Source: Sphingobacteriaceae bacterium | Lineage (GTDB): Bacteria; Bacteroidota; Bacteroidia; UBA7662 | Length of the DNA: 64,000 nucleotides | Direction of reading: 5' to 3' | Assembly (NCBI GenBank): GCA_013824115.1 | Contig: PNNG01000027.1 | Span: 20,425-84,424, forward strand | Shown: positions 9,395 through 30,855 of the stretch, one piece after another | Layout: each line of letters begins with the position of its first letter | Numbering within the stretch: the stretch's first letter is position 1 | Made by a program: the position numbers and the translations under genes | The notes under the pieces: model-generated | What the model saw: only the letters and a program-made list of their open reading frames with translations | Databases searched by the model: none | What the model was told of the DNA's origin: nothing

Positions 9395-12004
9395 TTATTG
9401 CTTTATCCACTTCTTCACCGATTTGCCCGATTTTGTTTCTCCCTCTATCAGGTAGATGCCAGGCGCCAGGTTTTCTAGCGACAGTTCCCATTGTAGTTGC
9501 TGCTCGGTTTGTACCTGCTTTAAGGTACGTCCCTGTAAATCGAGCACACGGATGCTCGAAAGAGGCTGCTGCGAACGTATTTTTAGCCATGTACTGCCCG
9601 GATTGGGGAAAATTTCCCAGTCGGCAGTGCCAAAACTTGGAATACCCGTTGCTGCCGAACCAGAAACCAATAAATCGCCAATGTAGAGGTTGCCACCAAA
9701 ATCGTTGATGCTTCGGAAGCGAACTTGGCAACCCTCTTGTAAAAATGGACTGAAGCCGCTGAAGCTAAAGTGCCGCCAGTGGCTGCTGTCGCTGGGCACG
9801 TTGCCAGCCGCATAGGTACGCATGCTGTCGCCCCCGCTGTAATAGAGGATTTGCGACTGCCTGCCACAATCGCATTCGAGCGATACGCGCAAACTGTCGC
9901 GGAAGGAGCTGTTGCGATTGCGATAGGCCAGTTTGAAGCTGATTTCGTTGATGGCGCCGTAGTTGGGGTTGATACTCACAAAGCTGCGGGTGAGTAAATC
10001 GTCTTGCTGGCGTTGGCGCACAGCATAAGCCGTGTGTTTCATCACAAATGCCTTGTTATCGCGTTGTAATCCCCCTACCGAAGCGGTGTCCCAAGTGATG
10101 TCGTCGGCAGTGCGGTCGACGATTTGCACCAAACTATCGCGCACAAATTGGTTGGCGGGCACAGGGAAGTAGGCCGACCAGCCTGGGCGTGGACTGCTGG
10201 TATCGCGGGGAGTTACGAAAAAGCGAACCGAGCGAAAGTTGTTGATTTCGTCTATTTCCTGGTTTTGGCCAGGTATGCGGAGTTCGATTTGCAGCTCGTT
10301 CCATCCGTTTTTGTAAGCCAACGGGCCCGCAAATAAGTTGGCGCTTTGCTGGGGTGCCAAATTTACAGGCAGCAAGGAACTTTGCCAGGCTGCACCATTA
10401 AGTGAGTAGCGCAGTTGCACCATGGGTATGATGCTATCTCCTAAATTCAAAGCTGAAAAATAAAGTGTTAAGCCGTTTATATGGTCTTCGGCACAAATGG
10501 TATTGTTAGCAGGCAAGCTCACAGCACCTACTGCAAGATCAGGACCGCTGCGGGCTGGGGTGGGTGTGTGACGAAGGGCTAAATAATTGTAAGCCGCTAA
10601 CACATCAATTCTTCCCCGTCCGAAGGTATTGTCTTCACCCGGGTCGCCCATGTCGATGGCCGAAATATACAGGGCGTACAGCAAGCTGTCGCCACCGAGT
10701 TGGGGGAAGGCTTCTTTGAGCAACACCACGGCGCCCGACACGTGCGGACAACTCATGCTGGTGCCCGAAAGGCTGCCGTAGCCTGTTTTGCCTAATGCTG
10801 AACGCACGTTCACGCCCGGAGCTACCACTTCGGGTTTGATGAGCAGGCTGCCTGTTTGTCCACACAAACTGGGCCCTCTGCTCGAAAAGCCGGCAATGGG
10901 CAGGGCTGCGTTGTTGCCGTCGATAGCGCCGATGGAAAAGATGTTCACATCGCTCGTATTTACAAATTGCGGGTGCTTCACCGTAGCTGGCCCAGGACCT
11001 TCATTTCCCGCCGAAAAGGTGATGGCCACGCCTGCAGCTTCCACCATATTGAATATTTGGGTAGCCCAGCTCACGCAAATGGTGGTGTCGGGGCCGCCCG
11101 CTTGTCCCCAGCTGTTGTTGATCACATCAGGAATATCACTCACGGTGCTGGTATCGCCATCGGGATTCATAGCCCATTCGAAGCTCATCAAATTGATGCT
11201 CAGCGGCGTGAGGTTGCTGTGCGTAAGCGGATTGGATGCCATGAAATAGGCATTAAAGGCAACACCAATGGTATCGCGTGTGGCCGTATCGAGCCCGAGA
11301 ATGGTGCCGTTTACATGGGTACCGTGGTGCGAAGGCCGATCGACGGGGAAATTGCTTTCGAGGCTGAACCAACCTTCGTTTAATGGACGGTGGTTACCCA
11401 AAAATCTCCGTGCCAGAGCCGGGTGATCGGTCCAGGTGCCGGTATCTACCGTAAAAGCTTTGCGGTTTCTGCCTGTATAGCCCATGGCCCACAAGGCAGG
11501 TGCATTGATCACATTCAGGCCAGGTTCCCGGCCATTGGCTACCTCAGGCGTTTCGATCGCTTTTGCTTCAATGGGCTCAACCAAGCCAGTCATATAACTT
11601 TCATCGGCGAACATCCAAAATATTTCCGTTTCGCGCTGCAGTGCTGGTACCAAAGCGAGGGGCATGTCCACCAAAACCACATTGGCAATCCAATACGCAT
11701 GAGTAATGGTGATTTCAGGATACTTATTGGTAATTTTGTCCAAAAACGGCTTTTGGTGCCTTTCCTGCAATTCCAAGGCCCTGCGAATTACGACCCTGGC
11801 GCGCTGTTCTGCGGTCATTCCAGCCGCGGCCATATCGTACTTCAATTGCAGTGCATTTATTTGCTCGTGCAGTAGCAATCCAATGCGGATATTGCCTTTT
11901 TCGCCCCGCTGTAACTTGGCCTCAAGCTCGGGATGCAACCAGGCTTGCTGGGCTTGGGAAAATGAACAAAAGAATAGAAATGACAGGAAAAGGAGCTTAC
12001 GCAT
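9395..12004 (-). CDS. Subtilisin-like S8 serine peptidase with T9SS C-terminal sorting domain
   Basis: Catalytic triad motifs: Asp (FTVDTGTW), His (HGTHVNGTILG) and Ser (GTSMSCPHVSGAV). Signal peptide present. C-terminal ...GIYLIEGETKSGKSVKKWIKQ resembles a T9SS sorting domain. Confidence 0.85.
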   Translation of the reverse strand: MRKLLFLSFLFFCSFSQAQQAWLHPELEAKLQRGEKGNIRIGLLLHEQINALQLKYDMAAAGMTAEQRARVVIRRALELQERHQKPFLDKITNKYPEITITHAYWIANVVLVDMPLALVPALQRETEIFWMFADESYMTGLVEPIEAKAIETPEVANGREPGLNVINAPALWAMGYTGRNRKAFTVDTGTWTDHPALARRFLGNHRPLNEGWFSLESNFPVDRPSHHGTHVNGTILGLDTATRDTIGVAFNAYFMASNPLTHSNLTPLSINLMSFEWAMNPDGDTSTVSDIPDVINNSWGQAGGPDTTICVSWATQIFNMVEAAGVAITFSAGNEGPGPATVKHPQFVNTSDVNIFSIGAIDGNNAALPIAGFSSRGPSLCGQTGSLLIKPEVVAPGVNVRSALGKTGYGSLSGTSMSCPHVSGAVVLLKEAFPQLGGDSLLYALYISAIDMGDPGEDNTFGRGRIDVLAAYNYLALRHTPTPARSGPDLAVGAVSLPANNTICAEDHINGLTLYFSALNLGDSIIPMVQLRYSLNGAAWQSSLLPVNLAPQQSANLFAGPLAYKNGWNELQIELRIPGQNQEIDEINNFRSVRFFVTPRDTSSPRPGWSAYFPVPANQFVRDSLVQIVDRTADDITWDTASVGGLQRDNKAFVMKHTAYAVRQRQQDDLLTRSFVSINPNYGAINEISFKLAYRNRNSSFRDSLRVSLECDCGRQSQILYYSGGDSMRTYAAGNVPSDSSHWRHFSFSGFSPFLQEGCQVRFRSINDFGGNLYIGDLLVSGSAATGIPSFGTADWEIFPNPGSTWLKIRSQQPLSSIRVLDLQGRTLKQVQTEQQLQWELSLENLAPGIYLIEGETKSGKSVKKWIKQ

Positions 12005-12005
12005 C

Positions 12006-14663
12006 TTATTGCTTTACAAATCGTTGAACAATGGGGCCTTGGGCACTGCTAGCTACCAAGAGGTAAGTGCCTGCGGGTAATTTCGAAATATCGAGCTGCC
12101 CACCTTGGTTACCTGAATCTGGGCGTTGAGAGAGCAGGGTACGACCTATTAGATCGGTCACCTTTAACTCCGTGATATCGACTTGCGTTTCGTAGGTCAA
12201 TCGCGTGCTGGCAGGGTTGGGATAGATCCTCATTCCCTGTTTGGCGGTAAGTTCACTTAGTGACATACCTTGGTCGAGATAGCTGATGTTGGTAATGTAG
12301 AGATTGCCTCCAAAGTCGTTTTTAGTAACGAACTTCAGGAAAACTGCAGAATTGCCACTGATGGGCTGCAGTGCAGGGTGATCAACCGCTACCGAGCGCC
12401 AGTGCTCAGGTAAAGTGGGATTTACGCCCTGAAAAGTGCGCATGCTGTCGCCACCGGTGGTGTAAACGCGGGTATAGCTGAGGCCACAATCCCAGGAAAC
12501 AAAGATGGAAAGCGAATCGCGGAAGGTGCCTGTGCGTGGACCATAAGCCATTTGGAATTGGAGGAAAGGACGGGCTGCACTGCCGGGATTCATAGGAGGG
12601 AAATGCAGGGGCGGACTGATAAGCTCATCGAGCTGACCCTGGCGCACAGCCATTTCACGCATACGTACCCCGGCAGCAAAGTTGGTGCTGGAGGCACCTT
12701 GAACGGGATAAAATTGCCAGCTGCGGTCATCACCGCTGAGGTCGCGTATAGTCCAATCGGTCAGCGCTGCTTGTCCGGCCTGACGCGTAGTGTCAAAACG
12801 CTCAATCAGTGGCAGGTTTTGGCCATCGCGGGTGGGGAATTCCAAGAGCCAACGGTTGTTGAACAAATCGGTTTCAACCAGATTTTGTAGCGGTTTCACT
12901 TCTAAACGCAGTTGATTGGGCAATGCTGCGCCCGAAGTGGTTAAAGCCAGAAGCGGTGTAGTAATGGTCATTTGCTGGCGGGGAAGCAATGTTTGATTCA
13001 CCACTACCGAATCGCGGCTATTACCAGCCAATTCATAAATGAGTTTGAAGCCAGTTACCGCGCTGTCACCCACATTTTGCACCCGCACTCTGAAACGCTG
13101 GCGGCTGATTTGGGGGATTTGTCCCGAGCAATCTTGTCCCAATTGGTGGGTAGCCGGACTATCAACCCCTGCAATGGCCAAATCGTAAGCCCTGCTGGCA
13201 GGTGCTGCTGGAGTATGACTGGATGCCAGGAAATTGAAAGCGGCAGGCAAGTTAATTACCCCACGACCAAATACATTGTCTTCGCCCGGGTCGCCCAAAT
13301 CAACGGCTGTTTGATAAAGTGCATTGAGTAATTGTCGGCCTGAGAGCTGTGGAAAAGCCTCTTTCAGCAATAAAACAGCACCACTCACATGCGGAGCCGC
13401 CATGCTGGTGCCCGATTTGGTGCCGTAGCCCGTGCGTCCGTCGGCCGAACGAACATTCACCCCGGGTGCAGATACTTCGGGTTTGATAGCAAAAGAGCCA
13501 CCGGGCGTGGGGCAGGTGGTAGGTCCGCGACTTGAAAAGCCAGCAATAGGTAAAGAAGCGTTGTTGCCATCCAAGGCGCCTACAGCAAACAGATTGAGGG
13601 TATCGAGCACCAATTGAGCCGGCACACCCCCCGTAGAAACGCCGGGTCCGTTGTTGCCAGCCGAAAATACATTGGCAATGCCAGCTGCTTCAACCGCTGA
13701 AAAGGCCTGAACCACCATCGGGTGGCCGCAAAGCGAATCTTGCCCAGTATTGGCACGGCCCCAGCTGTTGTTAATCACATCGGGGATGTCGTTGGTGGTG
13801 CTGGTATCGCCATCGGGATTGATGGCCCATTGGAAGGCACGAATCAGTTCAGTCCAAGGCTTTACTTGAGAAATATCGGTTACAATGGGGTCTGTGGCGA
13901 TGAAGTAGGCACCAAAAGCAACGCCAATGGTGTCGTTGGTAGCCGTGTCGAGGCCCAATACGGTACCAATGACGTGGGTTCCGTGGTTGCCGGTTTTGTC
14001 GCGAGGGCTTGGTTCGTCATAACCCAGCCAGGTAGATTGCAGGCCTTGGCGCTTTCCTAAAAACTGGCCTTGAATGGCAGGATGCTCGGGCCAAACACCG
14101 GTATCAACCAGCATGGCTTTGCGTGAGCGACCGGTATAGCCCATGCGCCAGAGGGTAGGAGCGCCAATCACCGTGAGGCCGGGTTCACGGCCGTTGGCTA
14201 CTTCCGGGGCTTCGGTGCCGGCGATGGGGGCTTCGAAGCCTATTTCGAAGGCATCGCTGCGTTCTATTTCTGCAATTTCGGTTTGTTGTTGCAACCAAGC
14301 GATGGCTTTGGTATCGGCTTCCATTTCGAGCATGTTTACCAACCAGTACGATTGAACAACGTGAAAGTGCTGTTCGGCAATTGATTGCTGCATTTTTTCA
14401 ATCAGCCTCAGTTGCTGTTGCTGTAAAGCCATGCCTTTGCGCATCAGCCATTGCGCCCGTTCGGAAAGCGGGGTAAATTGCCTTTCGAATGCCAACATCT
14501 GCTGGTAGGCCGGCAATTGATCTTTGAAAACGAGGGTAATGCGGTGTTTATGGGCACTGCCGCTTTCTACCAACGCAGAAGACAGTTTGGGGCCGAGTAT
14601 GGCTTGTGCGTTGACCACACCTACCGAGAGCAAACAAAACAACAGGATATAGCGCTTCATCAT
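12006..14663 (-). CDS. Subtilisin-like S8 serine peptidase with T9SS sorting domain; paralog of the downstream gene
   Basis: HGTHVIGTVLG and GTSMAAPHVSGAVLLLKEAFPQLSG. A long block shared with 9395-12004 (PEVANGREPGL.VI.AP.LW.MGYTGR.RKA). Signal peptide. C-terminus ...GTYLLVASSAQGPIVQRFVKQ. Confidence 0.85.
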   Translation of the reverse strand: MMKRYILLFCLLSVGVVNAQAILGPKLSSALVESGSAHKHRITLVFKDQLPAYQQMLAFERQFTPLSERAQWLMRKGMALQQQQLRLIEKMQQSIAEQHFHVVQSYWLVNMLEMEADTKAIAWLQQQTEIAEIERSDAFEIGFEAPIAGTEAPEVANGREPGLTVIGAPTLWRMGYTGRSRKAMLVDTGVWPEHPAIQGQFLGKRQGLQSTWLGYDEPSPRDKTGNHGTHVIGTVLGLDTATNDTIGVAFGAYFIATDPIVTDISQVKPWTELIRAFQWAINPDGDTSTTNDIPDVINNSWGRANTGQDSLCGHPMVVQAFSAVEAAGIANVFSAGNNGPGVSTGGVPAQLVLDTLNLFAVGALDGNNASLPIAGFSSRGPTTCPTPGGSFAIKPEVSAPGVNVRSADGRTGYGTKSGTSMAAPHVSGAVLLLKEAFPQLSGRQLLNALYQTAVDLGDPGEDNVFGRGVINLPAAFNFLASSHTPAAPASRAYDLAIAGVDSPATHQLGQDCSGQIPQISRQRFRVRVQNVGDSAVTGFKLIYELAGNSRDSVVVNQTLLPRQQMTITTPLLALTTSGAALPNQLRLEVKPLQNLVETDLFNNRWLLEFPTRDGQNLPLIERFDTTRQAGQAALTDWTIRDLSGDDRSWQFYPVQGASSTNFAAGVRMREMAVRQGQLDELISPPLHFPPMNPGSAARPFLQFQMAYGPRTGTFRDSLSIFVSWDCGLSYTRVYTTGGDSMRTFQGVNPTLPEHWRSVAVDHPALQPISGNSAVFLKFVTKNDFGGNLYITNISYLDQGMSLSELTAKQGMRIYPNPASTRLTYETQVDITELKVTDLIGRTLLSQRPDSGNQGGQLDISKLPAGTYLLVASSAQGPIVQRFVKQ

Positions 14664-14705
14664 ATATGATTGAAGCCTAAAAGATACAAAAGCTTTCGCT
14701 GAATT

Positions 14706-14999
14706 TTAATGCGAGAGCATGGTACAATCGCTTATAACGACCATTCCACCCACTTTTTGCACAAATTGACGCAATGGTTCCTTCAAATTTTCCCATTGAT
14801 CCTCGTTGCAAATCCAAATGAGCATGCTGTTTTTGAAAGCTTCTGTCAATCCATCGGCATTGCGATCGCCCCGTTCGCCTTTTCCTCGAACTTCGGGAAT
14901 GAGGGTGTAACCCAAGGCTCCGGCTTTTTCAATGAGCCGAATGACCTCTCGCATATCGTATGCGCCAGTGATGATTTCTACGCGTTTGGCTTTTTCCAT
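14706..14999 (-). CDS. P-II-like signalling protein (SbtB-like, nitrogen regulatory P-II superfamily)
   Basis: 97 aa with a beta-alpha-beta pattern and a T-loop-like GYTLIPEVRGKGERGD. It lies immediately downstream of the SbtA-like permease, as in cyanobacterial sbtA-sbtB. Confidence 0.6.
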   Translation of the reverse strand: MEKAKRVEIITGAYDMREVIRLIEKAGALGYTLIPEVRGKGERGDRNADGLTEAFKNSMLIWICNEDQWENLKEPLRQFVQKVGGMVVISDCTMLSH

Positions 15000-15009
15000 G
15001 AGGGGTAAT

Positions 15010-15972
15010 TTATCGGAACCAGAGAACTAACTGCATGTAGAGGGGGAGTCCCACCACGATGTTGAACGGAAAGGTAATGGCCAGTGCCATGGGCACATAT
15101 AGACCCGGATTGGCCTCCGGAATCGACATGCGCATGGCAGCCGGAACGGCAATGTAGGAGGCGCTGGCAGCCAAGACGGCCATCAAATAGGTATTTCCGA
15201 TGCTCAATCCCAGCCAACCACCCAACAAAGCTGCGAGGGTGGCATTGAATAAAGGCAGCACAATGCCGAATACCCAAGGGAACCAGCCTGCTTTCGACAA
15301 AGCCCTAAAGCGGCGACCCGCCAACAAACCCATATCGAGCAGGAAGAAGGCCAAAAAGCCTTTGAAGATGTCGTTGGTGAAGGGCAGGAGGCCTTCCACG
15401 GCCGCATCGGGTGAGGCAATACCGATGAGCAAGCTGCCCAAAACCAATACCACCGATCCATTTGTCAGGGCTTCATGCCATATTTTGCCGGTGCTGATGG
15501 GCTGGTCGGTTTTGCGGTATTTCTGAAACAACATCACCCCCAAAATGATGGCAGGCGACTCCATGATAGCCAACATGGCTACCATAAAGCCATCGTATTG
15601 AACAGCTTGCTCGTTGAGGTAGCTGCTGGCAGTGATGAATGTCACGGCGCTCACCGAGCCAAAAGTAGCGGCAATGGCGGCGGCATCGGGCAACGAAAAC
15701 TTGCGTTTGAGAATAAAAAACGCATAAAGAGGCACCAGGCACGAAAAGCCAATGGCCAACATGAGCAATTTACCAAATTCTGCAGATACCCCTCCGTGAC
15801 CCAATTCCACACCTCCCTTCAAGCCAATGGCGAAAAGCAGGTAAAGCGATAAAAACTTACTGATGGGTTGGGGGATTTCTAAATCGGAGCGCATGGCAAT
15901 GGCCAGCAGACCCAGAAAGAAAAACAGGATAGGGGGGTTGAGTAAATTTTGCTGAAGCAGGGCAATAGACAT
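15010..15972 (-). CDS. SbtA-like putative sodium-dependent bicarbonate transporter family permease (DUF897)
   Basis: About 10 predicted TM helices. The C-terminal block LAASASYIAVPAAMRMSIPEANPGLYVPMALAITFPFNIVVGLPLY resembles the SbtA conserved region. Confidence 0.65.
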   Translation of the reverse strand: MSIALLQQNLLNPPILFFFLGLLAIAMRSDLEIPQPISKFLSLYLLFAIGLKGGVELGHGGVSAEFGKLLMLAIGFSCLVPLYAFFILKRKFSLPDAAAIAATFGSVSAVTFITASSYLNEQAVQYDGFMVAMLAIMESPAIILGVMLFQKYRKTDQPISTGKIWHEALTNGSVVLVLGSLLIGIASPDAAVEGLLPFTNDIFKGFLAFFLLDMGLLAGRRFRALSKAGWFPWVFGIVLPLFNATLAALLGGWLGLSIGNTYLMAVLAASASYIAVPAAMRMSIPEANPGLYVPMALAITFPFNIVVGLPLYMQLVLWFR

Positions 15973-16035
15973 CGGCAGGCAAAATCGGGTTAGGGGATGA
16001 AGATAAGCGGCGACTTCGGTTCGACCAAAAAGGGC

Positions 16036-16072
16036 ACAAAAAATCCCGGCTGTTCACCGGGATTGTTTTTTT
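16036..16072. terminator. Rho-independent terminator downstream of the transaldolase gene; hairpin flanked by A- and T-runs
   Basis: AATCCCGG-CTGTTCA-CCGGGATT followed by TTTTTTT, and preceded by AAAAAA on the other strand. Confidence 0.5.
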
Positions 16073-16727
16073 AACCGTTGGCCTTGGCGTGGTCGGCCAG
16101 GAATTGGGCCAGACCTTTGTCGGTCAAGGGGTGGTTGAGCAGGCCAGTGATGGCGCTGAGTGGACAGGTAACCACATGGGCACCAGCCTCGGCGCACTTT
16201 ACAATGTGCAGGCTATTGCGTACCGAAGCCGCCAATACCTGTGTTTCAAAACCCTGGATGTCGTAAATGTCTACAATCTGTTGGATGAGTTCGATGCCGT
16301 CGAAACTGATGTCATCTAGTCGGCCAATGAAGGGAGAGATAAAGGTAGCACCGGCTTTGGCAGCGATGATGGCTTGGCCTGCGCTGAAAATCAAGGTGCA
16401 ATTGGTACGGATGCCTTTATCGGTGAAATAGCGAATGGCTTTGATGCCGTCTTTGATCATGGGTACTTTCACCACAATTTTATCATCAATGGCAGCCAAT
16501 TTCTCGCCTTCGCGGATCATGCCTTCGTAGTCGGTGCTGATCACTTCGGCACTCACATTGTCGTCTACGATGTCGCAAATGGCTTTGTAGTGGTTCAGGA
16601 TGTTTTGCTCGCCCGATATGCCTTCCTTGGCCATGAGGCTGGGATTGGTGGTTACCCCGTCGAGTACGCCCAAGGCGTGCGCTTCACGAATTTGGTCGAG
16701 ATTGGCGGTATCGATGAAAAACTGCAT
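16071..16727 (-). CDS. Transaldolase-family enzyme (short-form transaldolase / fructose-6-phosphate aldolase)
   Basis: MQFFIDTANLDQIREAHALGVLDGVTTNPSL...; 218 aa, typical of short-form TalC/Fsa proteins. Confidence 0.85.
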   Translation of the reverse strand: MQFFIDTANLDQIREAHALGVLDGVTTNPSLMAKEGISGEQNILNHYKAICDIVDDNVSAEVISTDYEGMIREGEKLAAIDDKIVVKVPMIKDGIKAIRYFTDKGIRTNCTLIFSAGQAIIAAKAGATFISPFIGRLDDISFDGIELIQQIVDIYDIQGFETQVLAASVRNSLHIVKCAEAGAHVVTCPLSAITGLLNHPLTDKGLAQFLADHAKANG

Positions 16728-17837: not shown

Positions 17838-18422
17838 TCAAAGCCGGAAAATGAGTTTGGCATTCAAGCTTGCTTTGGAATATGCAGTGGAAAATCTTGA
17901 GTCGTTTCCACACATAAACCACTCGTCTGGATAATTTTTGGAGTCGAACAGGTATCGTGAGTGAATGTCAAACAGTCTTCCCGCTTCAACGGCTAAGCCA
18001 AGTTTGGGTGAAAAATGGAAAGTACGGCCTAATCGGGTATTAATGAAGAAATGATGGTATTCAAAGAAGTCAATTCGCCTGTTTAGGTAATTCATACCAG
18101 TGCTCAAATACCAGTTTTTTTGTGCGTATTTATTGTTTTGTCCCCAAAAATGGTAGGCCAGTGACCAACCAGCAGTTCTGCGGCTGTATCCAACGTTTTC
18201 ATTACCTCCGAGTATCAAACCTACTTGCCATTGTTTCATTTCCAAATTAAATCCAAGGTGGTATTGTTCAACCAAACCTGCTCCAATGCTTACATTCGCT
18301 TTGGTTTGGGCGAAAAGAGGAGTTCGTACGACTAATACTGCCAATGCTACAAAAAGCATCATGAGCATTCTTGAAGTAGTAAACCGATTTATAATGGCCA
18401 TGTATGGATAGATTACCTTCAC
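17838..18422 (-). CDS. Hypothetical outer-membrane beta-barrel-like protein with signal peptide, in a lower-GC segment
   Basis: Signal peptide MLMMLFVALAVLVVRTPLFAQ. Alternating aromatic/hydrophobic beta-strand pattern; terminal ...KLIFRL. Local GC about 40% versus about 50% in the flanks. Probable start near 18362. Confidence 0.45.
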   Translation of the reverse strand: MKVIYPYMAIINRFTTSRMLMMLFVALAVLVVRTPLFAQTKANVSIGAGLVEQYHLGFNLEMKQWQVGLILGGNENVGYSRRTAGWSLAYHFWGQNNKYAQKNWYLSTGMNYLNRRIDFFEYHHFFINTRLGRTFHFSPKLGLAVEAGRLFDIHSRYLFDSKNYPDEWFMCGNDSRFSTAYSKASLNAKLIFRL

Positions 18423-20370: not shown

Positions 20371-20583
20371 TTGATTATGAATTTGCAGGAACGAAAAATC
20401 GCACTCATTCATTGGCTCACGGAGGTGGAAGATGAAGAGTTGCTGGAGCAAGTAGAAAGCCTCCAGCAAAATTCATTGTCTTTACCTTCTAAAATTGAGC
20501 AATTATTGGAGATGTCAGCCAAAACACCGGCTGCCGATTGTATTGCTCACACCTCCATCAAGGACCTGCTTCGGAAAGCATGA
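20371..20583 (+). CDS. Putative antitoxin partnering the downstream ParE/RelE-like toxin
   Basis: 70-aa acidic protein. Its stop overlaps the toxin start by 4 nt (ATGA). Confidence 0.5.
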   Translation: MIMNLQERKIALIHWLTEVEDEELLEQVESLQQNSLSLPSKIEQLLEMSAKTPAADCIAHTSIKDLLRKA

Positions 20584-20885
20584 AAAGTTTGATTTGGACG
20601 CCAATTGCGTTAAAGTCACTTCAAGAAACCGTCGATATCCTAGAAAGTCAATGGTATTCGCTCGTGGTTGATGAATTCATTGATAGTATAGAGCAAAAGC
20701 TCATTTTGGTTCAATCAAACGCAGCGTTAGGCCCCAAAATAGGCGCGGGAGAAATCCGCCGGATCCTGTTGCATCCACATATCTCGCTTTTTTACCAAGA
20801 TGAAGCAAGTCACATCAAGATTTTGCTGGTTTGGGATAACAGGCAAAATCCGGATACACTGTTTGAAAAGCTGGTCTCTCAATAA
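20580..20885 (+). CDS. Type II toxin-antitoxin system toxin, RelE/ParE family
   Basis: About 100 aa: MKSLIWTPIALKSLQETVDIL...GEIRRILLHPHISLFYQ...IKILLVWDNRQNP matches the ParE/RelE fold pattern of Bacteroidota TA toxins. Confidence 0.65.
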   Translation: MKSLIWTPIALKSLQETVDILESQWYSLVVDEFIDSIEQKLILVQSNAALGPKIGAGEIRRILLHPHISLFYQDEASHIKILLVWDNRQNPDTLFEKLVSQ

Positions 20886-22439: not shown

Positions 22440-24122
22440 ATGTCAACGCTTTCTACCGCAAAACTGAACATGGCCGAACATCCAACGCCCACCGGAACGC
22501 AACTCAATTGCAAAGGCTGGGTGCAGGAAGCGGCTTTGCGCATGTTGCACAACAACCTCGATCCTGAAGTGGCCGAGCGCCCCGAGGACCTGATTGTGTA
22601 CGGCGGTCGCGGTAAAGCCGCCCGCAACGTAGAAGCATTTGAGTTGATTGTGAAGGCTTTGAAAGATTTGAACGAAGACGAAACCCTGCTCGTGCAAAGC
22701 GGCAAACCGGTGGGCATTTTGCCTACCCACAAAGACGCTCCCCGGGTGGTGATTTCGAACTCTATGTTGGTGCCGAATTGGGCCAATTGGGAGCATTTTG
22801 ATGAGCTCGACAAAAAAGGACTGATGATGTACGGCCAAATGACGGCCGGTAGCTGGATTTACATCGGTTCGCAAGGCATTGTACAGGGTACCTACGAAAC
22901 CTTCAATGCAGTAGCCGACAAACACTTCGGCGGTTCGCTCAAAGGCAAACTTTGCGTGACGGCCGGTTTAGGAGGCATGGGTGGCGCTCAGCCCTTGGCC
23001 ATCACCATGGCCGACGGTGTGTGCTTGGCCGCAGAAGTAGAGGAGTGGCGCGCCCAAAAGCGTGTAGAAACCCGCTACCTCGATTTGATTGAACACGACA
23101 TCGACAAAGCCATTGACCTGGCACTTGATTTTTGCAAAAAAGGCGAGAATAAGAGCATCGGCGTGATTTGCACCGCCGTTGATTTGCTCGATCGCCTCAA
23201 CCAGCGCGGTATTGTACCCGATGTACTCACCGACCAAACCTCAGCCCACGATCCATTGGTGGGTTACATTCCACAAGGCATGACCAACGAGCAGGCCAAC
23301 GTATTGCGTGAAGCCGACCAGGAGGCCTACCTCAAAGCTGCCTATGCTGCCATGCGCCGCCATACCGAATTGATGGTGGAGCTGCAGGCCAAAGGCGCCA
23401 TCACCTTCGATTACGGCAACAACCTCCGCGGCCGCGCCCTCGAAGCCGGTTATACCCACGCTTTCGATTTCCCCGGTTTTGTACCCGCTTATATCCGCCC
23501 ACTTTTCTGCGAAGGCAAAGGTCCGTTCCGCTGGGCAGCCCTTTCAGGCGATCCTGAAGATATTCGGGTAACCGACGAGCTCATGCTCGAGCTTTTCCCC
23601 AACGACAAAGGCCTGCACCGCTGGATCAAAATGGCACAAGAACGCATTGCTTTCCAGGGTTTGCCGGCACGTATTTGCTGGATTGGTCAAGGCGACCGTG
23701 AAAAAGCTGGTTTGGCCTTCAACGAATTGGTACGCACAGGTAAGGTTAAAGCGCCCATTGTAATTGGCCGCGACCACCTCGATACCGGCTCGGTGGCTTC
23801 ACCCAACCGCGAAACCGAAGCCATGCTCGACGGTTCTGACGCCGTTGCCGACTGGCCAGTGCTCAACGCCCTCATCAATACTGCCGGCGGCGCCAGCTGG
23901 GTAAGCTTGCACCACGGCGGTGGGGTTGGCATGGGTTACTCCATCCACTCAGGCATGGTGATCGTAGCCGACGGCACCGACGATGCAGCCCGCCGCCTCA
24001 AGCGTGTGCTCCACAACGACCCCGCCATGGGTGTTATCCGCCACATGGATGCCGGCTATGACATTGCTAAGGATACGGCGCGGAAGCACCGGTTGGATAT
24101 CAGGGAGAGGTTGAAGAGTTGA
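22440..24122 (+). CDS. hutU: Urocanate hydratase
   Basis: 560 aa. The N-terminus and its internal NAD-binding Rossmann region are conserved throughout, as in urocanases. Confidence 0.95.
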
Positions 24123-24129
24123 TTTGAAA

Positions 24130-27100
24130 CTATTCGAACGAATTAGAAGCTGAGAATAAGACCCTTTCTTGTGAGTCTATTCGTTGTATTTCTGACTTTC
24201 TGCTAGAGTATAAGTTTTTCAATTTTGGGAATAACTTGAGATCGTGCTGGTCCAAAATTCTCTTTAGATCTTCAAAAATGGGTTCTCGTTTAACAAGAAT
24301 TTCGAGCTTTGTTTCTTGCCCAAAAGTAGGGACCCTTGTTAATTCATTTACCATGGATTCTAGCATTAATTCTTTATTCAAAGTGCTTTCAATAAGCATT
24401 TTGCCTCTTGCTGTCAAGTGAATAGAATCTGTTTCTATTCTAAACCATTGGATTTCCTCCACAATTTTTGGGAGTCTAATTTCAGTTTTCAGTTGTATCC
24501 AATTAAGTAGCATAATTGGCTTAATTTGATCGCTATTTATGAATTGGGATTTTATTCCAGGTCTAGACCATATCAATTGATTCCAATCCGTATCGAAGTA
24601 CTTAGTTAGTGCAATTTTTGGCCATTTTTTCTCAATAGCCTTTATTGAAAAACTAGTTGCGGAATAAACGCCAATGGCAGTATTTAGTGCTTCACAAAGT
24701 AAATCCAATGCTTTGATTGCCCAATTTTGAAGCATTGTTGAGTCAAGAATTTCAATAAACTGAGATAAATCGTAGTCCTTAATTTCAGTTTGTTCAGTTT
24801 TGGATTCGAACGGAATCCCAAAAAACAATTCAGCGACTGGAATATGAAATTTAGAGGGAAAATAAAAGTCTTGCTGTCTACAATTATATATAGCAAATTC
24901 AAATGTGATGTGTTTGAGCTGTTCGGAGTCGATGATTAAAGTCCAAACCTGATCTTTAAATGGATTTGAAAAATCACTAGAATTGGCAAGAACTCTTTTA
25001 ACGAAATACATAAAGTCCTCCTTTGTGTGTATAAGCTTCTCGATACCATATAGAATTCTATCCCTGTCCTTGAGGAAAAGTACGCGATCAAGCCATATAC
25101 TATGGAAATTTTTCTTCACACTTTCAAAGTCAATTAAATTCTCTGAAAATTCAGTTTCCTTTTCAGGACAAGTTTCGTGTATCCCTCGTATGCAACCATG
25201 AAAAAAGTCGCTGAGCGATAACTCGCTCGTTTTTTCTATTAAAGAAGTCAACTCGCCAATGGCTGAAGCGGACTCTGAAGTTGAAAAAAAGCCTTTTCCT
25301 ATGTAATGGTAGAAATAAGGTGCTTGCTTGCCTGGTTCTGAGAGTTTTGAAGCGAGTTGCGAAATGGTAAATCCTGCTTGGAACCACCTTATACCCAAAT
25401 TCAGTTGATATTGTCCGTTTTCTATGCGTTCAACTGTTTCTTCATCGGTATTGATTTGGAATGCAAAATTGTATGCCTCTTGGAATTTTTGAATGACATA
25501 GACATCGATTTCATCATCTAAAGTTTTAGGCCCATATTCGATTTTAAGGGCAAGCAGTTCTGCTAACTTCGGGTGATTATTCTGTTTTGCCCCATAGAGA
25601 TCTTTAATGGTTCTCAGTACTCCTGCCCATCCCCAAAACCAAAAGCCACTTTTGGCTATTTCACCACCAATCAAAACGAATTTAGAAAAGTAGTTCTCTT
25701 GGTTAAAATTATATTCCAATGCATTAGCCAATGATTTACCTATCTCTTGTTTTGATTCAGGGAAGTTGTTTTGTAATGACTCTATAAACATTAAACAGTG
25801 ATTTATCCAATCATCATACTCTGTTTGATATCGGGGAATAAAGCCATAATCCCTTATTTCATTGCCAAATGGAGCGAGATGATTGCCAGTCACATAACCA
25901 AAATATAAGAGGTTATCGAACAATTTGAAAATCAAATCCTTATTTGACTCATAATCATTTGATAAATCATTAAGGAATTTCAAACGAGTGGATACATGAG
26001 CCTGTGTATTGGAAAGTCTGCTTCGAAACAAGCTTTTTAAGTCCCCTCTTCCTTGTAGCTTTTTTAGATCAAATTTTTCGTGAATTTCGATTTTAAGAAT
26101 GCAATGAGCGCATTCGATGAAGTATTTATCTTCATAGGCAATCTGTACCAATGACTGGTGAAATTGACTCAACAATTTTGTAGTAACTCGTTTTTCACAA
26201 AGCAGTTCCTTGATTTTCATCAAGCTAATGTCCTTATCAAGAGGTATTATGTAGTTTAGTTGTTTTCCAAGCTCATAATCCCAATTTGGAAGAAGTAATT
26301 GCTCGCGATTTTGTTCCCACCAATGGTTGGATAATTCTTGAAAATTCATCTCGGATGACATTTCAAAGCACCTTTTTAGGAGAGAAGTGATTAGTCTATC
26401 TGCATCTAGTTCCTTAAGTTTCTTGTAAATATTTAGCGGACTAATAATCCTGAATGCCTCGAAGCAATAGTGATTTGCCAACGGGACAGGAAGTAATGCA
26501 TGCCAGGTGCCTCTTTGCTGAACAACGTCATGGTCTTTCAATGATTCCAATAATCTTCTGGCATGAAGAGGATTCTCTAAAAACAAATTGCACAATACAT
26601 CAAATTCAGAAGGGTTTTCATCTTGTACATCGAATGAAAATACTACAGAAATGAGTTGCAAGACTTGCTCGCTTTGTTGAAGCTTTGGGTTATTTGAAAG
26701 TAGTTTCAATACAAACTTACGATCGCTGAGCTTACTCCAGCTCTTTGTTTGCTTTCTGATGCCATTCAACAGAAAGTTCGACAATCTAAAGTTTCCATCG
26801 GCTAAAGTTATTATTCTTGAAGATATGCTGCTATGCATGCCAAGTCTACCTTCAATAAATTTATTTATTGCGCCATCTGAAGCTCTTTTTAGCCAAACAA
26901 TGTTTGATACCGAATCTTGTTTTTCAGAGACATCTAAATTTATTGTTACTAACCTTAGTGGTTTTAATTCAGAACTAGTGATTTTAGCCTCTAGTTCCTT
27001 GTGGAGTTCATGACTACAGTTGTCTATTACAACTACACTATTCTTGTTAATAGCAAGTAATTCATCTACAAGATGCTTAGGATGAGGATTCGCAATGCCT

Positions 27101-27921
27101 TCGTCATCGGTATAGAATATATCATTGATTATAATTGATTCATTACCGCTATAATTTTTGAATATTTCTTCAACGAATCTGCTTTTGCCAACCCCTGATT
27201 GCCCTATTACGCGAATTGCTGAAACGACATTTAATTGATTACGAAAGGCTAAAATGGCTTCTTTAGTATTATACTCAAGATTATTATTAAATCCTATAAA
27301 TGCAACCCTTGAATTTTCCAAATCCTCGATAAAATCAATATTCTCGTTGTTCAAGGACCATTGGCCTCTAGGCTTCCATCCATTCGTAGAAATTCCAAGT
27401 TTAGATTTAACCCAGAGCTGAACTTCAGTGTGATAATTCAACCATTTTTGGATATCGTGCAAATCGAAATAATCGCATTGCTCTGAGGGCGCGTTATAAA
27501 ATTCTAGCATGCAATTTTTCAGCGCAATGGATTTGGATTCTTTGGAGCTCCGAGATTTACAAACCAAAACATATTTGCCAGAATTCTGCTGTATTAAAGA
27601 TTCAATTTTTGGATATGTTTTACCTTTTAATAGTACTGCAGATCTAATTTTTCCTTGACTTAAATTAAAAGCCTTTACTTGAAATCCAATTATCTTATCA
27701 CGGAGAAATTGGTTCAAGGGTTCTGTAGAAGAATCTAGATTAAACATTATATCGATTCCACCATCCTTAGCCTTTGTCGATTCCCCGTATTCAGTAGATC
27801 TTGTAGAATGACCATTTTTCCTTGCTTCGGCATCGCAAAGTCGTCCTACCAAATCTTCAAAATCGTCTTCAGATAAAAGTTTTAATTGCTCAATTGAAAC
27901 ATCAAATGACGGTATGCTCAT
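24130..27921 (-). CDS. Large (1263-aa) three-part protein: N-terminal Mrr-like PD-(D/E)xK nuclease, P-loop NTPase, long helical C-terminal region; candidate antiviral STAND/Avs-like defence protein
   Basis: N-terminal FEDLVGRLC...KDGGIDIM...IGFQVKAF resembles the Mrr catalytic core (DGGID...QxK). Walker A VIGQSGVGKS is at 27181-27204. Walker B-like SVVVIDN follows. About 900 aa of low-complexity helical sequence comes after. The gene sits in a ~35% GC island. Confidence 0.55.
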   Translation of the reverse strand: MSIPSFDVSIEQLKLLSEDDFEDLVGRLCDAEARKNGHSTRSTEYGESTKAKDGGIDIMFNLDSSTEPLNQFLRDKIIGFQVKAFNLSQGKIRSAVLLKGKTYPKIESLIQQNSGKYVLVCKSRSSKESKSIALKNCMLEFYNAPSEQCDYFDLHDIQKWLNYHTEVQLWVKSKLGISTNGWKPRGQWSLNNENIDFIEDLENSRVAFIGFNNNLEYNTKEAILAFRNQLNVVSAIRVIGQSGVGKSRFVEEIFKNYSGNESIIINDIFYTDDEGIANPHPKHLVDELLAINKNSVVVIDNCSHELHKELEAKITSSELKPLRLVTINLDVSEKQDSVSNIVWLKRASDGAINKFIEGRLGMHSSISSRIITLADGNFRLSNFLLNGIRKQTKSWSKLSDRKFVLKLLSNNPKLQQSEQVLQLISVVFSFDVQDENPSEFDVLCNLFLENPLHARRLLESLKDHDVVQQRGTWHALLPVPLANHYCFEAFRIISPLNIYKKLKELDADRLITSLLKRCFEMSSEMNFQELSNHWWEQNREQLLLPNWDYELGKQLNYIIPLDKDISLMKIKELLCEKRVTTKLLSQFHQSLVQIAYEDKYFIECAHCILKIEIHEKFDLKKLQGRGDLKSLFRSRLSNTQAHVSTRLKFLNDLSNDYESNKDLIFKLFDNLLYFGYVTGNHLAPFGNEIRDYGFIPRYQTEYDDWINHCLMFIESLQNNFPESKQEIGKSLANALEYNFNQENYFSKFVLIGGEIAKSGFWFWGWAGVLRTIKDLYGAKQNNHPKLAELLALKIEYGPKTLDDEIDVYVIQKFQEAYNFAFQINTDEETVERIENGQYQLNLGIRWFQAGFTISQLASKLSEPGKQAPYFYHYIGKGFFSTSESASAIGELTSLIEKTSELSLSDFFHGCIRGIHETCPEKETEFSENLIDFESVKKNFHSIWLDRVLFLKDRDRILYGIEKLIHTKEDFMYFVKRVLANSSDFSNPFKDQVWTLIIDSEQLKHITFEFAIYNCRQQDFYFPSKFHIPVAELFFGIPFESKTEQTEIKDYDLSQFIEILDSTMLQNWAIKALDLLCEALNTAIGVYSATSFSIKAIEKKWPKIALTKYFDTDWNQLIWSRPGIKSQFINSDQIKPIMLLNWIQLKTEIRLPKIVEEIQWFRIETDSIHLTARGKMLIESTLNKELMLESMVNELTRVPTFGQETKLEILVKREPIFEDLKRILDQHDLKLFPKLKNLYSSRKSEIQRIDSQERVLFSASNSFE

Positions 27922-28011
27922 TGTGGATCTAGAATTGGATATTCAAGAATAACATCTAAAAATAACCAATAATTAGGAAAAGAAAAAAAATAACTTCAGA
28001 TGCATATGGCT

Positions 28012-29568
28012 TCACTCCACCACCAACTTCTGCGTCTCCACCTTACCGCCAGCATTCAGTTGTACGAGGTAAGTGCCCGAAGCCAACTGGCTGCTATTGA
28101 AAGGCACCAAATGCTGGCCGGGTTCGAATTTACCGGCACGCAGTTCAGCCACCTCGCGGCCGCGTAAATCAACCACCGAAAGACGGATGTCGGCCGTTTG
28201 GTTGAGCTGGAAACCGATGTTCAGCTCGCCACGGGCTGGGTTGGGATAAATGGGATACAATTTGGTTTGCAGCTTCAAAATGCCGGTTCTGTCCTCGGTG
28301 CTTAAGGCGATGTTTTCATCTCCAGCCTGGTAGGGCACATAACCAAAGTAGCAGAGGTACATTTCATCGGTGGTGCCTTCGCCCCAGGTAATTTGCTGAG
28401 GTGGGTTATTCGGGTTGTTCGGATTGCTGGCCCGGTTGTCGTAGGTGGCCTCGGCATATATCCACGTATTGGCGGGCAGGCGAATGAGGCGGGGGAAATA
28501 GTAAAATCCCTGCCAGTTGAAATCCCACTGCGGAATATTGATGAGGTTCACCGTATCGTTGCCCGGCCGCACGGCATATACTTTCCAATCGGTACCAATG
28601 AGGTGGCTGTGCGGAAAAATGCTGAGCAGCGATACCTCACTGGGTACCCTAAAACGGCCGCGGAAAGTGCGTACTTGATTGGCAGGAATCACAAAGGGAC
28701 CGTTCATCAAATTCAAAGGCGAAATCTCGGTAATTTGCTCCAACCTGGTCACTTGATTATTGCGGTCGTAGAAAATGTTGATGCTGCTCGAGTCGAGTTC
28801 AGGCAGCGACGAAGGAGCGTAGTGCATCTGCACCAGCACGTCGGCACCTGCAGGGAGCTGTTTGCCAATATTCGACGGAAAATACTTGGCAGCCGCACCT
28901 GGCGCCCAGCCGTACCAATTGTCTTCAGTAGGCGTAAAACCAAAGCCAAAAAACTGGGTGTAGCCGTAACCGGGGTCCAAACTATCGCGCTGGCGACCTT
29001 GACCGGTGAGGTCTATGCCCAAAATGGCATGGTGAACTACTTTTTTATTGCCGGCCCTGAATTCAATGGCCTTGATTTTTTTGGTTTCATTGAGGTTTGT
29101 GGGCAATACAAACACCCGGTACATATCGGTATTGTTGCCTTGGTGCAGGTACGATTGGGCCATCGAAATCACCGTATCGGGTTGCCCCAACTGCGAGCCG
29201 CTGGGGTAATTGGGCAGGGGAGGTTCGGCAGCAGGATTGCCCCGTTGGGCGCCTTGTTGCACCCAATCGACAATGGTTTGTACTTCTTGCTGGCTTAACA
29301 CACGCTCACCCAACAAATGGCTGTAGTTGGGGTCGGGCTGCCAAGGCGGCATATAGCGCGTTTGCACCGTAAACGAAATCATGCTCGCATAGGCCGATGC
29401 CTCCTGGTAATTGGTGAAGGGCATGGGGCCAATTTCACCAGGTCGGTGGCAGGGCGTACAATGCTGGTAAACGATGCTGGCTACTTGTCCGGCCCAAGTT
29501 ACCTGAGCTTGTATCTGGGTGAACAGGCCACTAAAAAGCAGTGCACCACAAAGCAGTAATTTCTTCAT
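28012..29568 (-). CDS. Secreted fusion protein: N-terminal mono-haem cytochrome c (CXXCH), PHM/DBH-like copper monooxygenase core, T9SS C-terminal sorting domain
   Basis: Signal peptide; HCTPCH haem motif. Cu-site-like motifs VVHHAILG, HYAP, HSHLIG and TDEMYLCYFGY (compare PHM HHM / HxH / DEMCN). C-terminal ...YPNP...GTYLVQL...KLVVE sorting domain. Confidence 0.55.
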   Translation of the reverse strand: MKKLLLCGALLFSGLFTQIQAQVTWAGQVASIVYQHCTPCHRPGEIGPMPFTNYQEASAYASMISFTVQTRYMPPWQPDPNYSHLLGERVLSQQEVQTIVDWVQQGAQRGNPAAEPPLPNYPSGSQLGQPDTVISMAQSYLHQGNNTDMYRVFVLPTNLNETKKIKAIEFRAGNKKVVHHAILGIDLTGQGRQRDSLDPGYGYTQFFGFGFTPTEDNWYGWAPGAAAKYFPSNIGKQLPAGADVLVQMHYAPSSLPELDSSSINIFYDRNNQVTRLEQITEISPLNLMNGPFVIPANQVRTFRGRFRVPSEVSLLSIFPHSHLIGTDWKVYAVRPGNDTVNLINIPQWDFNWQGFYYFPRLIRLPANTWIYAEATYDNRASNPNNPNNPPQQITWGEGTTDEMYLCYFGYVPYQAGDENIALSTEDRTGILKLQTKLYPIYPNPARGELNIGFQLNQTADIRLSVVDLRGREVAELRAGKFEPGQHLVPFNSSQLASGTYLVQLNAGGKVETQKLVVE

Positions 29569-30178: not shown

Positions 30179-30855
30179 TCAGTCGGCTTTCAGCCAAATT
30201 TCGGGATGTTCCCAAGGGCTTTCTATGGCCATTTGAATGGCTTCGGCTACTGCTTTAGGTTCAAGCACTCCAGGGCGTGGGCCTTGCGGTTGTTTGTTGT
30301 TGAAATAGGTATTCACCAATCCCGGATACAGGTTACAAACCGATATGTTGCTGCCTTCCAATTCTGCCTGCAAACTGCCAAACATGCCATCTTGCGCAAA
30401 TTTGGTAGCGCAATAGGCTGTTCCTCCTGCAAAGGTGCGGCGTCCGGCTTTACAAAAACGCCGGCGTTTTGGGCCTTGAAATGGGGGAGGACGGATTGGG
30501 TGAGTGCAAAGCCGGCAAAAACATTCAGCTGAAATAGCTCCATCATTTCCTTGACCGAAATGTTTTCCATTGGCCCAAATTTGCCCATGCCTGCGTTGTT
30601 CACCAGCACATCTATGCGTTCGAAATGGGCCACAATCTGTTTAATGACGGAGGAAAGATTTTCGGATTGGGTCAGGTCGACTTCTAGAATGAGGTACTGG
30701 CCTTGGGCTAATCCAGCATCTTTCACCAACTGCTGCATCTCACTGCCATTTCGGGCCAGCAAGGCCAATCGATAGCCCTTGGCACCCAACAAACGTACTG
30801 TGGCTGCACCAATGCCTCGGGAAGCACCACTAACAACAACTACTTCCGGTCTCAT
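30179..30855 (-). pseudogene. Short-chain dehydrogenase/reductase (SDR) gene disrupted by a frameshift
   Basis: The N-terminal ORF has GASRGIG and NNAG. The catalytic ...AGRRTFAGGTAYCATKFAQDGMFGSLQAE (YxxxK) is readable only in a different frame across ~30395-30410. The C-terminus resumes in the 30179-30385 ORF. Confidence 0.5.

Follow-up and report, generated by a model that had tools for sequence, protein, structure and literature searches.

Chromosomal defence hotspots lying between core genes are known from the pangenomes of Escherichia coli and Pseudomonas. The protein family relevant to the locus described here is PD-lambda-4, renamed Avs8, an antiviral STAND nucleoside triphosphatase (NTPase) with an N-terminal Mrr-family nuclease (bioRxiv 10.1101/2025.07.02.662641; bioRxiv 10.64898/2026.01.04.697583). 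Avs8 binds HK97-fold major capsid proteins with a Kd of 14-127 nM, and major capsid proteins are sensed by the E. coli protein and the Klebsiella protein alike, at an interface whose shape complementarity makes it tolerant of low sequence identity (bioRxiv 10.1101/2025.07.02.662641; bioRxiv 10.64898/2026.01.04.697583). The E. coli protein, Avs8A, degrades double-stranded DNA upon addition of capsid protein and provides anti-phage defence, for which its operon partner Avs8B is dispensable (bioRxiv 10.1101/2025.07.02.662641). The subject of this analysis is an AT-rich island found directly after the urocanase gene hutU in 64,000 nt of DNA from an uncultured member of the Bacteroidia (Sphingobacteriaceae bacterium, assembly GCA_013824115.1, contig PNNG01000027.1, positions 20,425 to 84,424), the whole of which is referred to below as the window. 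The island most probably represents laterally acquired cargo in a chromosomal defence hotspot, with its gene encoding an antiviral STAND NTPase of the Avs8 (PD-lambda-4A) family.

The island differs sharply in composition from its surroundings. Its GC content is 35.1%, against 49.4% in the rest of the window (z = -7.5), and all 1047 other segments of that length (3889 bp) are at 45.2% or above. GC content at third codon positions (GC3) is 0.32 in its open reading frame (ORF), whereas the other 43 long ORFs range from 0.40 to 0.67, all but one being at or above 0.45. The tetranucleotide distance between the island and the rest of the window is 0.549, compared with a window spread of 0.156 +/- 0.018 (z = 22.5), and the synonymous codon usage of the ORF lies 0.17 from the pooled usage, about twice the distance of any other long gene (0.05-0.09). 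This composition is outside the host range and foreign. A first-pass annotation, made from the letters of the window, had described the fall in GC after hutU and a single large ORF on the opposite strand to hutU; both are borne out, this being the only long ORF that the island encodes. It had further allowed that GC and codon usage might prove normal for the genome, and the values are in fact far outside its range.

Both junctions of the island are tight. The first-pass annotation had put the larger gap at about 90 bp, which agrees with the 90 bp measured, and the smaller at 8 bp, which is corrected to 7 bp. It had also remarked upon the lack of an integrase, transposase or direct repeats, and here too it holds: a Pfam scan of the flanking genes, which are housekeeping genes, detected neither kind of enzyme, and a search of the two junctions for terminal direct or inverted repeats found none beyond chance. 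The combination of a recombinase gene with flanking repeats or att sites, by which integrative mobile elements are recognised, is absent, and there is no space for a second gene.

Judged by its sequence, the gene is a full-length, divergent member of the Avs8 / PD-lambda-4A family; it is a member of a known family and not a new kind of system. Likeness to E. coli Avs8 was judged through the PADLOC profile and 93 family representatives. The profile PDLC03991 aligns residues 6-930 of the protein with positions 4-942 of 1283 (E = 2e-98), and PD-Lambda-4_A was the only PADLOC model matched at E <= 1; the profiles of AVAST Avs1-5 gave no match at this threshold, nor did the PADLOC restriction models match the protein. 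A hidden Markov model (HMM) of the 93 family members, from which the window protein and its closest homologue (P0001) were left out, aligned positions 4-1261 with residues 6-1253 (E = 4e-193). Four fragments of the protein were each matched colinearly by this HMM, with E = 1e-50 for the N-terminal domain, 2e-73 for residues 201-560 (aligned over approximately 205-540) and 1e-53 for residues 561-930 of the sensor, and a score of 39 bits for the last third.

An exhaustive HMMER search of 1.84 billion representatives found 1298 relatives, 591 of them at E <= 1e-30, and among the matches listed at that threshold nearly all are 1260-1280 aa long. The family is visible only in such an exhaustive search of representatives, a word-indexed homologue search having given only three, then nine, proteins. 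In alignments of 16 (A1) and 95 (A4) members, colinearity begins with the first residues and continues up to a conserved C-terminal Phe-Glu. Megablast against E. coli genomes gave no match, Pfam and NCBIfam produced only sub-threshold matches to AAA_16, AAA_22 and nSTAND3 for the protein and 16 family members, and the homologues in the annotated records searched (plasmids and one Siphonobacter genome) carry the label 'hypothetical protein'. No close relatives of the window protein were found on viral contigs; distant family members occur on 13 viral or prophage contigs, with no conserved partner gene next to them. An Avs8B (PD-Lambda-4_B) partner is likewise absent from the island, where only 7 bp and 90 bp lie outside the ORF. 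This is no obstacle to the assignment, because Avs8B is dispensable in E. coli and the 13 members on viral contigs have no conserved neighbour. The first-pass suggestion of a compact single-gene defence islet thus finds support in the membership of the gene in an experimentally validated anti-phage family.

The predicted protein divides into an N-terminal effector domain, a STAND-type P-loop NTPase module and a long helical sensor (Table 1). In the first of these, a putative Mrr-type PD-(D/E)xK nuclease, the residues D53, D57, Q81 and K83 of the PD-QxK nuclease motif are present, and are invariant in 95 of 95 family members. The P-loop NTPase motifs (Walker A, GxxGxGK[ST]; Walker B, hhhhD) are intact, with Ser instead of Thr after the Walker lysine. 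The further invariant residues G376, Q468, P478 and W1141 are kept, and every family-invariant column is satisfied. At the end of the putative sensor, F1262 is shared by 91 of the 95 members and E1263 by 92; we found no description in the Avs8 papers of a role for this near-invariant C-terminal Phe-Glu.

A single-sequence AlphaFold model was unusable (mean predicted local distance difference test score, pLDDT, of 37.5), whilst an AF2 model from a ten-sequence alignment was of moderate confidence (mean pLDDT 66.5), with values mostly of 70-90 over residues 200-600 and of approximately 45-90 in the sensor, which is modelled as helical repeats. The top Foldseek neighbours of the latter in the PDB are nearly all STAND proteins: an archaeal STAND-TPR protein (6mfv, E = 3e-8), Avs3 (8dgc, 2e-6) and Avs4 (8dgf, 1.5e-5), together with SAMD9, NOD2, Apaf-1 and CED-4 (hits including 9zjr, 5irn and 3shf), the range being 3e-8 to 1e-4. 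Global TM-scores were low because of the uncertain domain arrangement in the model. Searches of PDB sequences with the protein and with the 95-sequence family profile yielded nothing significant: the plant NLR Roq1 was matched weakly at its P-loop (E = 0.09), and the remaining hits were spurious ones to repeat proteins. The model supports a STAND architecture.

Table 1. Features of the Avs8-type island and its flanks; positions are those of the window.
Feature	Position	Strand	Evidence or remark
Variable AT-rich island	24123..28011		Bounded by the stop codons of hutU and of the gene for the type IX secretion system (T9SS)-sorted protein
Avs8 / PD-lambda-4A-family gene, 1263 aa	24130..27921	-	Stop codon 24130-24132; PADLOC and leave-out family HMM
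N-terminal effector domain, residues 1-195, putative Mrr-type PD-(D/E)xK nuclease	27337..27921	-	Family HMM, residues 6-196, E = 1e-50
Catalytic motif D53-G-G-x-D57 ... Q81-x-K83	27673..27765	-	Columns invariant in A1 and A4
Predicted STAND-type P-loop NTPase module, residues ~200-520 (nucleotide-binding, helical, winged-helix)	26362..27324	-	Family HMM, model and Foldseek
Walker A G240-Q-S-G-V-G-K-S247	27181..27204	-	G240, G243, G245 and K246 invariant in 95/95
Walker B V296-V-V-I-D300-N-C302	27016..27036	-	D300 and C302 invariant; N301 in 93/95
Predicted C-terminal all-helical sensor, residues 521-1263, ending in conserved Phe-Glu	24133..26361	-	Colinear with family throughout
Recombination tract, residues 521-860	25342..26361	-	~100% identical to the P0001 allele of a different species (L001/L002)
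Residues 1-520, nuclease and NTPase			55% aa identity, window vs P0001
Residues 521-860, first half of sensor			100% aa identity, window vs P0001
Residues 861-1210, second half of sensor			71% aa identity, window vs P0001
Residues 1211-1263, C-terminal end			98% aa identity, window vs P0001
Right-hand junction, gap between the stop codons of the convergent Avs8 gene and hutU	24123..24129		7 bp
AT-rich spacer upstream of the Avs8 gene, presumed promoter region	27922..28011	-	90 bp
hutU (urocanase), conserved right flank	22440..24122	+	Pfam Urocanase_N, Urocanase, Urocanase_C
518-aa protein with T9SS C-terminal sorting domain, conserved left flank	28012..29568	-	Pfam Por_Secre_tail

The site between the T9SS gene and hutU is a defence hotspot, represented by four metagenome-derived genomes, two with Avs8 and two with a Type IIG restriction-modification (RM) gene. 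The closest homologue of the window protein, P0001 (73% identity), occupies the same position between the two flanking genes in the Logan contigs named L001 and L002. With the T9SS protein as anchor, a scan of metagenomes recovered contigs L094, with both flanks, and L085, with the left flank; in each the T9SS gene is followed downstream by a gene of like orientation for a Type IIG enzyme of 1290-1293 aa (PADLOC PDLC03612, E = 1e-274 and 1e-280; Pfam DUF7149, DUF7814, Eco57I and TaqI_C), and no tblastn hit relates the Avs8 cargo to the Type IIG cargo. The flanks are well conserved, the T9SS-sorted protein, for which there is no PADLOC match, having 91-95% aa identity in L001, L094 and L085, and hutU 99-100% in L001 and L094. 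An exact look-up of the window hutU matched only the window's own contig, and its best relatives are from uncultured Bacteroidia metagenome-assembled genomes. The T9SS sorting domain encoded in the left flank puts the host in the Bacteroidota. Nucleotide identity among the four genomes is 83-95% in guaA, the T9SS gene and hutU, with a single redoxin pair at 96%; across the flanking genes it is 84-93%, most pairs falling at 84-90%. All four are roughly equidistant, and therefore the cargo does not track relatedness.

Among the four genomes, homology extends no further than the T9SS stop codon to one side of the cargo, and to the other it breaks off with the last codon of hutU. The hutU product ends in ERLKS in the Avs8 carriers (window and L001) and in ERLK in L094, which places that breakpoint at the hutU stop codon. 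In L001, the 302-bp spacer before the Avs8 allele (9699-10000) contains the leader of the Type IIG gene and its first 51 codons, which share 93% nt identity with L094 and run into a premature stop; hence Avs8 replaced the restriction gene in that lineage. No trace of RM cargo was detected in the window by blastn, and its 90-bp spacer lacks similarity to the corresponding spacers of L001, L094 and L085. That L094 and L085 carry the Type IIG gene here and L001 its stub, together with the foreign composition, supports the first-pass view of the island as horizontally acquired accessory DNA.

These comparisons also bear upon the alternative that the gene is an ancient core resident, with an odd composition arising from its own constraints. 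Such a gene could be expected at the same position in related lineages, as is seen in the window and L001/L002, and the first-pass annotation had asked whether it might be found at the locus in all relatives. It is not: two equally related genomes have Type IIG RM instead, L001 retains the RM stub, and the hutU anchor, followed through one genome per species, revealed neither an Avs gene nor a comparable GC drop after hutU in 80 other Bacteroidota species. The GC3 of 0.32, set against about 0.45-0.67, and the tetranucleotide z of 22.5 are likewise difficult to reconcile with long residence, as is a segment 100% identical between species that are 84-93% identical elsewhere. The core-gene reading is barely credible, the Type IIG cargo in L094 and L085 and the stub in L001 effectively refuting it.

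Other genes of interest accompany the RM cargo or lie near the same flank. In L085, a 915-aa HD-CE and GHKL-type ATPase (HATPase_c_3) protein is encoded directly after the Type IIG gene (13511-16258, + strand; 32-37% GC; no PADLOC match), and may be an uncharacterised defence gene or an RM partner. L094 has two more low-GC genes beside the RM gene (11905-13635, + strand), encoding a 211-aa protein without a family match and a 273-aa protein with Fib_succ_major. In a more distant relative, L091, a 500-aa ORF (10897-12399; 46% GC in a 55% background) lies two genes downstream of the T9SS homologue and is absent from L089, which is otherwise syntenic; possibly this is a further variable insert in the vicinity of that gene.

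The two Avs8 alleles at the hotspot are mosaics (Table 1). Nucleotide identity between the window and P0001 alleles is 99-100% over 25350-26250, falling to 50-65% over 26400-27900 and 72-85% over 24300-25350, whilst in the same comparison the flanking housekeeping genes are about 84-93% identical. An identical tract of approximately 1 kb between genomes with such diverged housekeeping genes indicates a recent transfer of this part of the sensor from one species to another, in which the effector half did not take part. We tentatively suggest that the hutU / T9SS junction acts as a recombinase-free 'swap slot' in an uncultured Bacteroidia genus, with Avs8 being rebuilt through inter-species exchange of three modules (nuclease and NTPase, proximal sensor, distal sensor), the last of which would have a specificity, whether for capsids of Bacteroidota phages or for another protein, outside that of characterised Avs8. 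This compound proposal is possible rather than probable.

By analogy with published work on E. coli and Klebsiella Avs8, Avs3, Avs4 and Avs7, from which the trigger, oligomerisation, DNA cleavage and anti-phage phenotype are all inferred, the protein would rest as an autoinhibited monomer. During infection, the helical C-terminal sensor would bind a conserved phage protein, which for the characterised Avs8 proteins is the HK97-fold major capsid protein, and this binding would free the P-loop NTPase module, allowing it to oligomerise. Assembly would gather the Mrr-type PD-(D/E)xK nuclease domains of the N-termini together to degrade DNA, halting phage production through abortive infection. The gene itself was most likely acquired through homologous recombination between the conserved flanking genes, rather than with a site-specific element, given the lack of a recombinase or repeats, the breakpoints at stop codons and the RM stub.

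Several observations weigh against the interpretation of the island as acquired cargo with an Avs8-family gene, and they are of different kinds. The first concerns its history. The first-pass annotation had looked to related genomes for an empty locus; none was found, as there is cargo in every genome in which both flanking genes are adjacent, and the T9SS-hutU adjacency is not kept outside the immediate lineage, so that no empty site can be defined in more distant relatives. For the lineage of the window itself, how and in which direction the cargo was acquired is consequently taken from the relative L001. A second set concerns the nuclease, for which the Pfam Mrr_cat match falls below the cut-off (E = 0.063), a profile search with the N-terminal domain found no nuclease relative in the PDB, and most of residues 37-150 are modelled with a pLDDT under 50. 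The third concerns divergence: identity to family members is 20-29% in alignments and 24-30% by HMMER (among the matches listed), residues 931-1263 alone score just the 39 bits given above, with colinear positions, and the PADLOC match ends at residue 930. Lastly, position 479 is Val, where 74 of the 95 members have His, and a scan of the 90-bp spacer for sigma-70 consensus promoters and terminators, using a consensus not modelled on Bacteroidota promoters, gave results at chance level. Separately, we observe that the common His of the WRAxLPHA motif is replaced by Val or Thr in the window protein, P0001 and P0004.

The resemblance of the N-terminal motif to Mrr-type restriction nucleases, seen in the weak Mrr_cat match, could be taken to suggest an NTP-dependent restriction-type enzyme (Mrr/McrBC-like, Type IV) that reads modified DNA directly instead of acting as a STAND sensor, and the slot does hold a restriction enzyme in relatives. 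However, PADLOC matched no restriction model, only PD-Lambda-4_A, the fold neighbours are STAND and NLR proteins rather than McrB or AAA+ translocases, the 740-residue helical-repeat C-terminus is typical of protein-binding sensors, and what activates the family member that has been characterised is a protein, not DNA modification. This reading, which we consider extremely unlikely, was rejected on these four grounds.

The low identity and the barely recognisable last third of the sensor mean that the window protein and E. coli Avs8 may have different ligands. The family and architecture would then be as proposed, with the diverged distal sensor recognising another protein of Bacteroidota phages or a variant of the capsid fold. 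Consistent with this, conservation across the whole family is lowest in the C-terminal third (11-28% column identity), which is only weakly recognisable in the window protein and in which the two alleles of the locus show about 30% difference; alternative activators of Avs proteins are moreover considered possible (bioRxiv 10.64898/2026.01.04.697583). Yet from residue 521 onwards, as far as the terminal Phe-Glu, the sensor keeps colinearity with the family and shares many of its anchor residues, and both of the Avs8 homologues tested sense major capsid proteins via an interface tolerant of low identity. A different trigger is less likely than the capsid protein, yet it is a realistic possibility.

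The Val at position 479 and the outcome of the promoter scan favour the view that in its uncultured host the gene survives as an inactive or decaying remnant, a passenger that has been silenced and has lost its defensive function. Against this, the frame of 1263 codons is intact in AT-rich DNA, where stops arise easily, all 16 family-invariant residues are kept, and another species has a second intact allele at this site, in which a segment exchanged recently is 100% identical. We regard decay as very unlikely, and laterally acquired Avs8-family cargo as the best explanation of the island. The first-pass observation is thus confirmed and the interpretation that it was given supported.

Three further features were observed elsewhere in the window. 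A short-chain dehydrogenase (SDR) gene (ORF 30313-30855, - strand) lacks, at 30448-30449, 13 nt that are found in an otherwise identical public contig (L003; 9713 nt, 0 mismatches); the difference causes a frameshift, giving 180 aa in the window as against 229 aa in the L001 orthologue, and represents either a real disruption or an artefact of assembly or editing. Between a carboxyltransferase gene and corA, a patch of 43-44% GC (20371-20885, + strand) encodes a 115-aa ParE-family toxin after a 70-aa ORF. It is 79% identical to the L001 copy, whilst both its flanks are 98-99% identical, and looks like a second small variable islet, of the toxin-antitoxin type. A 194-aa ORF in a patch of 38-41% GC (17838-18422, - strand) is matched by neither Pfam nor PADLOC and is possibly a further small insert of foreign origin.

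The locus extends a family of capsid-sensing receptors, characterised recently and so far studied in enterobacteria, to an uncultured lineage of Bacteroidia. It provides a natural example of defence turnover, from Type IIG RM to Avs8, at a slot of a few kilobases bounded by two stop codons, and the stub and the inter-species mosaic alleles show that the sensor and effector halves travel separately. Its usefulness lies in annotation and in the study of how Avs sensors diversify; no new mechanism is revealed.

In comparison with the Avs8 proteins of E. coli ECOR07 (WP_000963924.1) and Klebsiella (KpAvs8), the window protein falls in the same length class (approximately 1260-1280 aa) and appears to share the order of modules, with an Mrr-type nuclease, a P-loop STAND NTPase and a long helical sensor, as well as full-length colinearity and all family-invariant residues. 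It differs in that the profile of the characterised clade covers residues 6-930 only, in its identity of 20-29% to the family, in the Val at 479 and in its host, an uncultured member of the Bacteroidia rather than a gammaproteobacterium. PD-lambda-4 as originally defined is a pair of A and B genes, whereas the window locus has A only, without an Avs8B-like partner; one gene suffices in E. coli. Avs4 (AVAST type 4; PDB 8DGF), an Mrr-like nuclease-STAND-TPR protein that senses the phage portal, is similar in overall design (Foldseek E = 1.5e-5) and probably in its logic of activation, but the two have no relationship at the sequence level, either in the PADLOC Avs1-5 profiles at E <= 1 or in PDB sequence searches, and their sensor family and trigger differ. 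The Type IIG enzymes (MmeI/Eco57I-like) of L094 and L085 are proteins unrelated to the Avs8-type gene product, although they share its slot and orientation and are of similar size (1290-1293 aa, compared with 1263). Finally, the site is unlike previously described defence hotspots between core genes in being a tiny slot of one to three genes, devoid of integrase, tRNA and repeats and with breakpoints exactly at the flanking stop codons; it resembles them in its conserved flanks, in its mutually exclusive low-GC cargo of Avs8 or Type IIG RM, and in the turnover evident from the stub and the mosaic alleles.

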